Below are positions 15,492 to 48,036 of a stretch of 64,000 bases of DNA, piece after piece. The translations under genes and the position numbers were made by a program. This DNA comes from Candidatus Versatilivorator sp. (GTDB lineage: Bacteria > Acidobacteriota > Terriglobia > Versatilivoradales > Versatilivoraceae), in assembly GCA_965207735.1 (NCBI GenBank), contig OZ242296.1:2112001-2176000 (forward strand), read 5' to 3'. Below the pieces are notes generated by a model, which was not told the origin of the DNA, made no database searches, and was given only the letters and a program-made list of their open reading frames with translations. Each line of letters starts with the position of its first letter. Within the stretch, counting starts at the first letter, position 1.

Positions 15492-15760
15492 AAATGATCG
15501 ACGATTTCCGCCTCCGGGGGTCACGCTCGTGCCGTCGTATGGGTGAAACGGCTACAACTTGGCGACATTCACCTTACCGTTTCACATTTTCGACAACCAC
15601 AACGCTTCTCTCTCAGAGGGAGAAGTCCTCGCTGTTGTGGATTAGGCTTTTCCGGAACACCGCATGGGACGGGGGATAACACGGATTTCCCGGGTCCTAT
15701 GCGAAATAGCGCTGCGAGGCTTCGCCTTGCGTCTCGCCCCTCGCCCGACGGGCTAGCGCG
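15492..15760 (+). other. Conserved non-coding module, homologous to the reverse complement of ~62866-63137
   Basis: Shared blocks in the same order: AATGATCGACGATTTCC, GGGGGTCA, TGCCGTC..ATGGGTG, CACAACGC, CCTCGC.GTTGTGG, ACACGGATT, GCGAGGCT.CGCCT.GCGT, CCCCTCGCCCG. Confidence 0.7.
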
Positions 15761-16167
15761 GCGGGCGCAGGCCCAGGACCACATCACTAAAAACTCACTG
15801 TTTCAACTAAGATATCACACCTTTCTCATATATTTTCTTGCAAACTGTAGGCTCATTGCTTCCAGGCACCCTTGGCGCGGCTGAAATCAGCACCGGCCTG
15901 CAGCCTCTGGAGCGCGGGACGTTCAACTTCAATCCGAGCGGGGACGCTTGGCGCGGCGAGTTACAAGGCCGATGAAGTTTGTGACACGCCATGGCGCTCC
16001 CCGCGGGAACACGCGCCATGACGGCGGCCAGCCTGCTCGACAGTCGATGGATAGGGGTCGTTCACCTGGACCGGCGAGGGCGGATCGTGGCGGTCAATGC
16101 CGGCGCCCGCGCCATTTTCCGGCGGGACGATGTGTTGTCGGACCGGGACGGCGTGCTGCGGGCGGCC
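15758..16167 (+). repeat. 410-bp near-identical inverted repeat of 47627-48036 (AT-rich promoter-like region plus 5' part of the LuxR-type gene)
   Basis: Direct comparison shows only scattered substitutions. The 15991 ORF MALPAGTRAMTAASLLDSRWIGVVHLD matches the 47803 ORF. Confidence 0.9.
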
Positions 16168-16215
16168 AGGCAGCAGCCTTGCAATCTCCTCCTTTCCGCC
16201 CCTACAAGACCCTAA
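15991..16215 (+). pseudogene. 5'-only truncated copy of the PAS/LuxR regulator
   Basis: Nearly identical to the first ~59 aa of 47198..47803, then diverges and lacks the HTH. Confidence 0.8.
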
Positions 16216-16602
16216 GACTTCGGGCATCAAGATCGAGACCGTCTATCGGCAACTTTGGATACGCAAAGGAAAGACATGGCAATGAGAATATCGAATTTCG
16301 AGATCGTGTTTCCAGAACGTAACGAAGTGGCTAATTTCAATGTCAATGCCGAGTTCAATTACTTAGGTGGAGGTGACCAGAGCCAGGGTTGCGGACGAAT
16401 TTGAAAATTTTCTTGAAGATAGAGGTGATCCATACGATTGGGACGATTTTCTTTCGGTTTCAACTAAAGATCCAGGAATAACCCGCGAATAACCCGCGTG
16501 CGCGACGTGTGCAGCTTTGTTGCAATCCGAAGACTGATACACGGACTCCATCCGTCAGACTTTCCGAACGGCCCCGCTTGGCGCTCTGGGTGGCGAAAGG
16601 CC

Positions 16603-46917: not shown

Positions 46918-47197
46918 CGGTTCTCCTTTCCCGAGCTTGCTTGAGAATGGGTCAAGAGCTCAACAACCAGAACCCGGCAGTGCACTTCACAGCGACACGG
47001 GGATGGCCACCTGCGCGCTTCGGACAATTTGAATCACTGGATTGCATTCGGCTTTCAGGAACCAGTCCTGCGGCCAGTGGCGCAGAGCGACGGCGGCAAC
47101 TGCAGCAATAAAAACCACAATTCCTAGCAGGCGTTTGAGAACCGGAAACCGAATGGTTGCTGCAGAAACAATCTCGCCTGGAACCCAACCTCCTCGG

Positions 47198-47803
47198 TTA
47201 TTCCAACTCGGCTATCAACAGCACCAACCGCACCAGGTCCGCCTGCCGCGAGATGTGAAGCTTCTGGTAGATCCGCTTCAAGTGCCAATAGACAGCTCCT
47301 TTCGTGTTTCCCGCAGCCTCGGCCATTTCCTGCACGGTCTTGCCTTCCGCCAACCAGGCCGCCACCCGACCCTCCCCCCGCGTCAGCCCCAGAGCCGCCG
47401 CCACCATGCCGGGATCGACACGGTGCGGGCTTTTCGGATCGACAATCAGGACCAGCGCGGCCACGCACCACCCCTGGCAATCCGGTTGCGGGAACCCCGC
47501 GGGTTTGACCTGCACCACCAGCGGCGGCAAACCGGACCCGCGGCGTAGCCGCATCCATCCGCCAACCCCGGAGGCCGCCGCCGCGCCGGCCACCAGACGC
47601 TCGAGACCGAGATGATCCTCAGGGCCGGCCGCTCGCAGCACCCCGTCCCGGTCCGACAACACATCGTCCCGCCGGAAAATGGCGCGGGCGCCGGCATTGA
47701 CCGCCACGATCCGCCCTCGCCGGTCCAGGTGAACGACGCCTATCCATCGACTGTCGAGCAGGCTGGCCGCCGTCATGGCGCATGTTCCCGCGGGGAGCGC
47801 CAT
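47198..47803 (-). CDS. LuxR-family HTH regulator with a PAS-like segment (N-terminally short)
   Basis: GVVHLDRRGRIVAVNAGA is PAS-like. GLTRGEGRVAAWLAEGKTVQEMAE...VYWHLKRIYQKLHISRQADLVRLV is a LuxR HTH. Confidence 0.8.
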   Translation of the reverse strand: MALPAGTCAMTAASLLDSRWIGVVHLDRRGRIVAVNAGARAIFRRDDVLSDRDGVLRAAGPEDHLGLERLVAGAAAASGVGGWMRLRRGSGLPPLVVQVKPAGFPQPDCQGWCVAALVLIVDPKSPHRVDPGMVAAALGLTRGEGRVAAWLAEGKTVQEMAEAAGNTKGAVYWHLKRIYQKLHISRQADLVRLVLLIAELE

Positions 47804-48036
47804 GGCGTGTCACAAACTTCATCGGCCTTGTAACTCGCCGCGCCAAGCGTCACCGCTCGGATTGAAGTTGAACGTCCCGCGCTCCAGAGGCTGCAGGCCG
47901 GTGCTGATTTCAGCCGCGCCAAGGGTGCCTGGAAGCAATGAGCCTACAGTTTGCAAGAAAATATATGAGAAAGGTGTGATATATTAGTTGAAATAGTGAG
48001 TTTTTAGTGATGTGGTCCCGGACCTGAGCCCGCCGC
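47627..48036 (-). repeat. Second copy of the 410-bp inverted repeat (divergent promoter region between the LuxR gene and the hybrid kinase)
   Basis: Reverse complement of 15758-16167. Confidence 0.9.

Follow-up and report, generated by a model that had tools for sequence, protein, structure and literature searches.

Two convergent giant genes of Candidatus Versatilivorator sp. as members of a dispersed, probably recombining family of predicted surface proteins

In a 64,000-nucleotide stretch of the closed genome of Candidatus Versatilivorator sp. (G000; 5.26 Mb, 62% G+C), in the following called the window (G000:C1:2112001-2176000), two giant open reading frames (ORFs) face each other, namely gene A (ORF 18410-28492, forward strand, 3360 amino acids) and gene B (ORF 46917-32380, reverse strand, 4845 amino acids). 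Both belong to the 40 dispersed loci of one family of predicted surface proteins, whose copies are probably shaped by conversion and occasional head grafts and not by flipping of the locus. A preliminary description of this DNA had interpreted the pair as a dedicated flip cassette diversifying host-facing proteins. This is unsupported, as A and B rank low among the pairs of the family, the inverted repeat around them appears to be the scar of a luxR gene, and the heads lie outside the inverted stalk.

The overall layout that had been described was confirmed. Both genes share a collinear stalk of approximately 5.8 kb (22687-28491 versus 38116-32381), which is 84.4% identical over 5810 alignment columns, and their heads are unrelated, with reprolysin/M12B, fn3, and NHL domains in A and an S8-type protease, GLUG, Calx-beta, and cadherin domains in B. 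The middle is occupied by debris of insertion sequences (IS) and of a restriction-modification (R-M) system, namely an IS1380-type fragment, a frameshifted gene which we take to be IS630-like, and an N6-methylase fragment. The identity of the shared part is indeed patchy, with values of 0.61-0.72 at 24566-25020 and 0.95-0.99 at 25472-26220. Along the stalk, the DNA identities were between 0.61 and 0.99 per 50 codons, and the silent sites followed.

Exchange of stalk segments among the copies

By the sequence evidence, this patchiness is the result of recombination and not of selection. The gene conversion that had been proposed between A and B was assigned to the wrong unit, since the exchange network appears to be the whole dispersed family. 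The near-identical block, formerly taken as a feature of the pair, is mostly common to all 12 long-stalk copies of the genome: all 66 pairs average 95-97% identity in 25600-26200, and another pair is closer than A and B in each of 19 windows of 300 bp. After pairs with less than 75% overlap had been dropped, the A-B identity ranked 29th of 34 for the whole stalk, 37th of 66 for the distal part, and 38th of 78 for the tail. The longest identical tract of B (350 bp) is shared with copies 1.2 and 1.8 Mb away, the longest identical run of A (296 bp) with its copy at 290 kb (p290), and a 1013-bp identical run is common to a spondin-ASST-headed and a sulfatase-headed copy which lie 625 kb apart. Physical distance was tried as a predictor of identity and was rejected, as its effect was not significant (Spearman p 0.07-0.94).

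Recombination tests, as suggested in the preliminary description, were run across the paralogs and gave significant mosaicism, of which little concerns the pair itself. A GENECONV-like scan yielded significant fragments in 51 of 66 pairs (75 fragments, one of them A-B) and, in another region, in 21 of 28 pairs (46 fragments, three of them A-B). A PHI-like test was significant in both regions (0 of 1000 permutations). When clonal descent was simulated under an identical rate profile (n=100), the gap between near and all incompatibilities was 0.002+/-0.006 with a maximum of 0.023, versus 0.162 observed, which points to a mosaic ancestry beyond rate variation.

Furthermore, the paralogs are closer to each other within the genome than between species, silent sites included, as is characteristic of concerted evolution. 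In the block 25500-26200, the 4-fold divergence of A is 0.04-0.055 to 11 paralogs and 0.28-0.39 to the 13 of 78 foreign loci which cover it, where the amino-acid difference amounts to 28-31%. Within G000, 59 of 66 pairs have identical runs of at least 100 bp, compared with none of the 552 pairs that combine a G000 copy with one from three congeners. These congeners show the same trend more weakly, with 43 of 153, 20 of 66, and 28 of 120 pairs within the genomes and 24 of 696 between them. Additionally, 10 tails of G000 form one clade (support 100/98).

Several points weigh against a purely family-wide exchange or limit the comparisons on which it is based. In the tail-domain trees, A and B are sisters (99/97; 94), which they are not in the tree of the distal part. 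Both genes share an identical, private-looking tract of 152 bp (25196-25347) and a near-private haplotype of about 165 bp (at about 28255-28420), and by the share of long identical runs the pair ranks 7th of 34. Simplified versions of GENECONV and PHI were applied to sequences projected onto A by BLAST, and the foreign loci used for divergence, identical runs, and tail trees were best hits to the tail of A with 3-kb flanks rather than full families. With one genome per species, conversion cannot be told apart from a recent duplication combined with deletion, nor from recombination involving other cells. The shared tracts and the sister tails make some local exchange between A and B likely, as one edge of the larger network.

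In the diverged block (35830-36190 on the side of B), B is the outlier versus all paralogs, and no donor was found among the paralogs or the congener loci fetched (best identity 76-78%). The stalk-module allele of B at this place is 67-78% identical to any of these sequences. RecA, MutS, and MutL are present, and since the frames of MutS and MutL are open, a lost mismatch repair was rejected as the reason for homeologous exchange. Both heads are covered at a depth of 6-21 by independent contigs, which stem from one sample (two runs) and pile up on the alike blocks to 48-109 (at 95-98% stringency), versus 11-19 at 24020-25221. A pile-up on the alike blocks only is what real multi-copy identity should give. 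One opposite-strand joint in the contigs is explained by the 3′ end of B matching that of A and gives no evidence either way on orientation, and none of the contig pieces listed extends across a repeat.

Heads and tail domain of the family

The preliminary description had also proposed a shuffling of heads and tails. Heads and tails have indeed been shuffled, and the graft found in A is common to an unlinked copy 1.84 Mb away. The metzincin head was matched 35 times in 13 of the 14 genomes of the genus. Of these matches, 27 were examined (6 in G000, 21 foreign) and 8 left out, among them 6 short frames of 728-837 amino acids. A near-full head with a tail downstream was present in 22 genes, which were kept; the five genes dropped comprise three with short-type tails, one without a tail in the stretch, and one with a head fragment on a long-stalk tail. 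The long stalk is absent in 20 of the 22 genes, and 19 belong to one tail clade. The tails of A and p290 nest among the long-stalk tails, and one gene of the comparison genome G012 (the comparison genomes are labeled in the G001 series) has a third tail type. Constraining the 22 tails to a single clade was rejected (approximately unbiased (AU) test, p=7e-5). The sister of the A head in G005 is a short-type gene.

These data support a grafting of the metzincin head onto a foreign tail clade. Since 19 of 22 metzincin heads are on the other clade and the B head is commonly on long frames (4000-6500 amino acids in 12 of 19 matches of the genus), A is the probable chimera. Between A and p290 the whole gene is duplicated (89% over 8.3 kb), and p290 has no facing partner. 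As this unlinked copy has the graft in common with A, we infer that the present inverted pair did not create it. In six paralogs, the junction with the A stalk lies no more than about 30 bases from a single point, which is the start of an Ig/SWM unit. This common joining point may be a favoured crossover zone or merely a boundary that gives folded proteins.

The A head matched Reprolysin_3, Reprolysin_4, and Reprolysin_5 above the Pfam cut-off and aligns with adamalysin-type structures. Its zinc motif of the HExxHxxGxxH type keeps the three His and the Glu, with Ser replacing Gly. By these features it is an M12B metzincin and a predicted protease. The protease domain of B gave a Pfam S8 match only if scanned alone (E 7e-12). 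PF00082 was matched by all 18 aligned homologs (B 45.7 bits versus a cut-off of 21.8), and the G-T-S motif of B aligns with subtilisin-like structures. The usual place of the H-G-T motif does not hold this motif in B and its homologs, but a near-invariant Glu (E157 of A2). A Glu in place of the triad His is a feature of S53-like enzymes. The AlphaFold model of this domain had a pLDDT of 46 and was not used. Based on the Pfam match and the catalytic Ser motif, the B head is classified as an atypical S8 subtilase and predicted protease. The N-termini of A and B resemble signal peptides, that of A being only moderately hydrophobic, and both genes are predicted to encode exported surface proteins.

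The genes of the family have a 482-amino-acid tail domain in common, which gave 41 matches at 40 loci in G000. It was matched 9-51 times per genome in all 18 other genomes of the family Versatilivoraceae, and the 12 genomes compared from the remaining families of this class gave no match. With a profile of the tail, 2080 cluster representatives out of 1.84 billion were recovered at E<=0.001. Its closest relatives are mostly in records of Candidatus Versatilivorator and Versatilivoraceae (Acidobacteriota), whose members we take to be sponge symbionts. In G000 the heads comprise LRR (8 of the 39 stretches scanned), M12B with NHL, spondin, arylsulfotransferase, GSDH, sulfatase, M9, trypsin, S8, GLUG, and SBBP, and several family members are broken.

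No Pfam or NCBIfam family matched the tail above the cut-off. Its structural model (pLDDT 87.6) consists of four beta-sandwiches. Among 48161 chains, unit 1 matched TM1070 best (1NC7; Z 11.6, rmsd 3.1, 109 residues aligned), followed by ASRT (2II7; Z 9.3, rmsd 3.6, 100 residues aligned), with the third-ranked chain at Z 7.2. Foldseek likewise gave 1NC7 (probability 1.0, target TM 0.65), and with the whole model mostly weak multi-domain matches. Each unit contains an invariant Asn (N28, N148, N262, and N389 in 34 of 34 sequences), whose equivalence to N32 of TM1070 was read from the strand position. The strand-1 Trp is present as W371 of unit 4 in all 34 sequences, with F5, Y130, and T244 at roughly equivalent places of the other units. 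The profile of the 34 sequences, which is narrow, had no PDB sequence match at E<=10. From its model, the tail is predicted to have a TM1070/ASRT-type beta-sandwich fold in four ASRAH-like units.

TM1070 and ASRT are the founding members of the ASRAH superfamily, whose secreted proteins occur as dyads or tetrads and are predicted sugar binders (De Souza, Iyer, and Aravind, 2009, PMC2739507; this and the following papers are cited for the portions available). For the tail, binding of a sugar or small molecule is likewise a prediction. The tail resembles ASRAH by its best fold matches, by four tandem units as in amidase-fused tetrads, by the invariant Asn ending strand 2, and by its occurrence in predicted exported proteins. 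It differs by the missing sequence-level match, by a strand-1 Trp in only one of four units, and by many head types with the domain at either end. Three ASRAH families, none from Acidobacteriota, are listed in the available portions of that paper (PMC2739507).

Of 150 representatives, 121 carry the tail at the C-terminus, 17 at the N-terminus, and 6 in an internal position, and in 6 it is partial. The N-terminal and internal cases speak against the tail being an obligatory signal for C-terminal secretion, and the placement at either end would better suit an anchor or binding module. One subgroup (P0135, P0137, P0141, P0150, P0152, P0154, P0156, P0158-P0160, and P0177) carries the four-sandwich domain directly after the predicted signal peptide, with a common motif downstream of it. 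The block 25500-26200 of the stalk includes a beta-rich module of about 115 amino acids without Pfam match, and a diverged second copy (26662-27043), which is missing in two paralogs, precedes the tail.

Sixteen neighbouring family pairs lie less than 30 kb apart, most of them in tandem (13), with 2 convergent pairs and 1 divergent pair. The second convergent pair is located at G000:C1:2089464-2099785, approximately 12 kb left of the window, with an LRR head and an interrupted M12B-NHL head, and in G009 two tail-bearing genes likewise converge in the neighbourhood of tRNA-Ser. Relatives of most island parts described below are present in a tandem cluster at G000:C1:278000-341000, which comprises the twin of A, a spondin-ASST gene that is intact, two hybrid kinases, a broken gene resembling B, and an open frame of 5797 codons that lacks the tail. 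In addition, a direct duplication of 2.5 kb with 99.3% identity (G000:C1:4000974-4003492 versus 4018681-4021199) was found between two neighbouring family loci.

The tRNA-Ser island and the 410-bp repeat

Genes A and B lie in a 39-kb tRNA-Ser integrase island, with an integrase beside the tRNA, a direct repeat comprising 15 bp of the tRNA 3′ end, and an empty site in relatives (Table 1). The repeat was identified by word search and comparison with congeners. It is the only 15-mer common to the tRNA region and 13301-52900, and at its left site the synteny with G002 and G006 breaks off. Of the five congeners with a polyketide synthase (PKS) at the site, four have it less than 4 kb from tRNA-Ser, and in the fifth other cargo accompanies the same integrase. 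In G012 the same integrase is followed by an unbroken luxR, and in G002 luxR, kinase, and an intact spondin-headed gene stand side by side elsewhere. Judged by these comparisons, the alleged cassette is rearranged island cargo.

The 410-bp inverted repeat described earlier is present (15758-16167 versus 48036-47627, 97.6% identity) in exactly two copies in the genome, with a longest perfect stretch of 130 bp. Its supposed regulatory nature was not upheld, since approximately 150 bp are internal luxR coding sequence (amino acids 185-233 of the 378-amino-acid congener protein). The LuxR gene reported beside it is luxR-type sequence that comprises just the C-terminal half of the gene: the congener protein has about 378 amino acids, and in the window its gene is split with an N-terminally shortened kinase between the pieces. 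The junction part of approximately 260 bp had no match in 13 congeners except one hit of 34-39 bp, and the left copy is flanked on one side by a mobile-element remnant and on the other by a spondin gene which deletions have left in three pieces. Scans for sigma-70-type promoters gave no site around either copy, which is weak evidence as the consensus may not suit the organism. The repeat is best read as the duplicated scar of a broken luxR.

A RecA crossover at the repeat is possible, given the 130 perfect base pairs. As both ends hold the same 410-bp sequence, a flip would leave equal sequence inside each end. The genome contains 28 inverted-repeat pairs of at least 300 bp and at least 95% identity within 60 kb, many of them 0.9-1.9 kb long at 97-100%. 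The inverted part between A and B is the constant 3′ stalk with the heads outside, which does not correspond to an exchange of the shufflon type, and a crossover in the stalks would swap near-equivalent constant tails (~85% identical) and change little. The nearest recombinase is the island integrase, which is paired with direct repeats; in general, a genome may carry its invertases at other places (PMC5903667).

Table 1. Features of the island and of genes A and B (window positions).
Feature	Position	Strand	Remarks
Left attachment-like site	14090..14104	+	15-bp direct repeat of tRNA-Ser 3′ end; left edge of island
Repeated mobile-element remnant	14826..15763		Abuts left 410-bp copy
Left repeat copy	15758..16167	+	~260 bp unassigned junction DNA and luxR codons 185-233, then broken off
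Spondin/arylsulfotransferase-headed family gene remnant	16412..18229	+	Internally deleted; three pieces, short overlaps at joins
Gene A	18410..28492	+	Likely start ATG 18458 (3344 amino acids); predicted signal peptide to tail domain
A M12B metzincin	18560-19690	+	Zinc motif at 19481; then fn3
A NHL propeller repeats	19967-21979	+	Then three Ig/SWM units, cadherin/fn3 stalk, tail domain
A stalk	22687..28491	+	Common to B and other long-stalk paralogs; mosaic ancestry
Block homogenised across 12 long-stalk copies of G000	25500..26200	+	4-fold divergence given in text
A tail domain	27044..28489	+	482 amino acids; four predicted beta-sandwiches, ASRT/TM1070-like; no Pfam/NCBIfam family
Truncated IS1380-type element	28491..29016	-	Begins at A stop codon; >20 copies elsewhere at 90-93%
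Frameshifted transposase, presumably IS630-like	29494..30642	+	HTH domains
Chimeric ORF	30643..32250	-	N6-methylase fragment at its end (R-M debris)
Gene B	32380..46917	-	4845 amino acids: predicted signal peptide, Ig/SWM unit, protease, GLUG, Calx-beta, cadherin, stalk, tail
B tail domain	33828-32383	-	
B atypical S8-clan protease (predicted)	45720-44128	-	
luxR C-terminal half	47198..47803	-	Amino acids 185-377 of congener protein (at 47773-47204)
Right repeat copy	47627..48036	-	Junction DNA and start of luxR half
Hybrid kinase/response regulator	48012..50024	+	Between luxR halves; ~150-amino-acid N-terminal region missing, present in 7 of 8 paralogs
luxR N-terminal piece	50228..50440	-	Amino acids 1-71
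Tyrosine integrase	51629..52861	-	410-amino-acid open frame; Arm-DNA-bind_3, Phage_int_M, Phage_integrase
tRNA-Ser(TGA)	53026..53115	-	3′ end 53025-53039 = right attachment-like site

The pieces of the spondin-gene remnant are 88-95% identical to intact copies at 318 kb and 4919 kb of G000, and the mobile-element remnant gave 57 BLAST hits in the genome within 15200-15790. A second tyrosine integrase gene is located at 60938-63322 of the window, where a repeated element with dozens of genome copies is related to 15288-15763 beside the left repeat. Nine hybrid kinase/response regulators of the type found between the luxR halves are present in G000, several of them beside giant family genes. A Fic-domain fragment (13611-14147), 97-98% alike in G002, is cut at the left attachment-like site.

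The left part of the window (1-13326) contains a swf-like cluster with a mono-modular PKS, a reductase-sulfotransferase, and two radical SAM genes, which adjoins tRNA-Ser in several congeners. As the swf cluster has been described as specific for sponge symbionts (PMC3908369), this match indirectly supports a sponge habitat.

Alternative explanations, known systems, and biological meaning

Under the explanation favoured here, dispersed copies would trade stalk segments by RecA-type homologous recombination, probably as non-reciprocal conversion, although short duplications or DNA from other cells could give a like pattern. Such an exchange would keep the long-stalk subfamily alike within each genome, and a new head would now and then join the common stalk. 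A would descend from a single join of a metzincin-NHL head, normally part of a gene of about 1800 amino acids, with a long-stalk gene in the ancestor of A and p290. The facing layout of A and B would have arisen by island accretion and deletion, with the repeat as a by-product. The proteins would be exported and held at the surface by the tail via glycan, presenting the protease heads on a long stalk, probably toward the sponge host.

Birth and death without ongoing conversion, in which gene pieces were recently duplicated and then deleted or fused and the alike blocks are young duplicates, is improbable. It would account for the deletion scars in the window (the spondin gene in three pieces, the split luxR, the truncated kinase, and the truncated IS), for the whole-gene duplication of A and p290, and for the broken members of the family. 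However, a block of approximately 700 bp is 95-99% alike in 12 copies with flanks differing by 15-30%, and the nearest neighbours switch in frame at intervals of a few hundred bases, which would require many in-register replacements independent of each other. Even less weight is given to the dedicated, recombinase-independent cassette of the preliminary description, in which crossovers in the stalks would swap tails and crossovers in the 410-bp repeat would flip 32 kb. The identity ranks of the pair, the 28 inverted pairs of the same class in the genome, and the inverted geometry of only 2 of the 16 neighbouring pairs, 13 being tandem, all speak against it, even though both inverted homologies, the 130-bp perfect stretch, and RecA are present. 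In the same way, the two A-B-specific tracts and the sister tail domains agree with such a cassette, but the variable heads lie outside the stalk interval, so that a swap exchanges tails of ~85% identity, the repeat appears to be a luxR scar not found in congeners, and the graft of A is common to an unlinked copy.

That the near-identical blocks are an artefact of assembly collapse or polishing, or have been kept by purifying selection, can practically be dismissed. Contigs do collapse over the alike blocks, but with the depths given above for heads, alike blocks, and 24020-25221, and the copies differ by 1-5% and not by 0. Other species differ in this block by ~30% of the amino acids, which argues against selection.

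In a literature search with most subscription journals outside its scope, neither a match to the genus name nor on-point literature on gene conversion or domain shuffling in sponge-symbiont proteins was found. The sap S-layer genes of Campylobacter fetus are said to undergo RecA-assisted inversion through long surface-gene homologies, reportedly with conserved 5′ ends and one mobile promoter, whereas in the present family it is the 3′ ends that are conserved, and every gene has a 5′ region of its own. The closest parallels are found among other surface-protein paralogs. The lpl cluster of the Staphylococcus aureus island nuSa-alpha (Tsuru and Kobayashi, 2008, PMC2568036) also consists of island paralogs with a presumed host-related role, a conserved homology region within the genes, and incongruent 5′ and 3′ phylogenies produced by recombination without a dedicated recombinase. 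It is a tandem array with a central conserved region, whereas the copies described here are dispersed over 5.3 Mb, their constant part is a multi-kb 3′ stalk, and their heads are unrelated enzymes or repeat domains. Giant1-5 of Apilactobacillus kunkeei (PMC12863079) are likewise symbiont surface proteins of 3000-8000 amino acids, whose diversification and homogenisation are due to intragenic recombination; they are encoded by five consecutive genes and were compared across strains, whereas here unlinked paralogs of one genome and head grafts are concerned.

The R64 shufflon (Rci/sfx, pilV; PMC11852207) and invertons (PMC5903667) resemble the locus by inverted homologies beside surface-protein genes. 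In those systems short sites and an invertase switch a variable C-terminal segment or a promoter, whereas here the constant C-terminal part is repeated. Sponge symbionts are known for many eukaryote-like repeat, cadherin, and fibronectin proteins, with which the present family shares LRR/NHL, cadherin, and fn3 domains, and sponge-associated Acidobacteriota are reported to be rich in such repeats (PMC8163846). In its available portions, that work counts domains and describes neither a common tail nor conversion.

Recombination among surface-protein paralogs is known as such, and here it seems to operate among unlinked copies with unrelated heads. The build-up and surface retention of the repertoires of sponge symbionts appear to be little described in the literature consulted, and this closed genome is a measurable case, in which conversion-like tracts link copies megabases apart and one probable head graft can be placed in a lineage. 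The tail provides a handle to catalogue the predicted surface proteome of the family and to probe its binding. It is conceivable, though rather doubtful, that the constant stalk and the ASRAH-like anchoring tetrad form a genome-wide platform, held interchangeable by continuing gene conversion between copies megabases apart, which serves as a recombination socket for host-facing heads such as proteases, sulfatases, and eukaryote-like repeats without a dedicated recombinase. If so, new host-facing proteins would arise within living symbiont populations by grafting at one module boundary.

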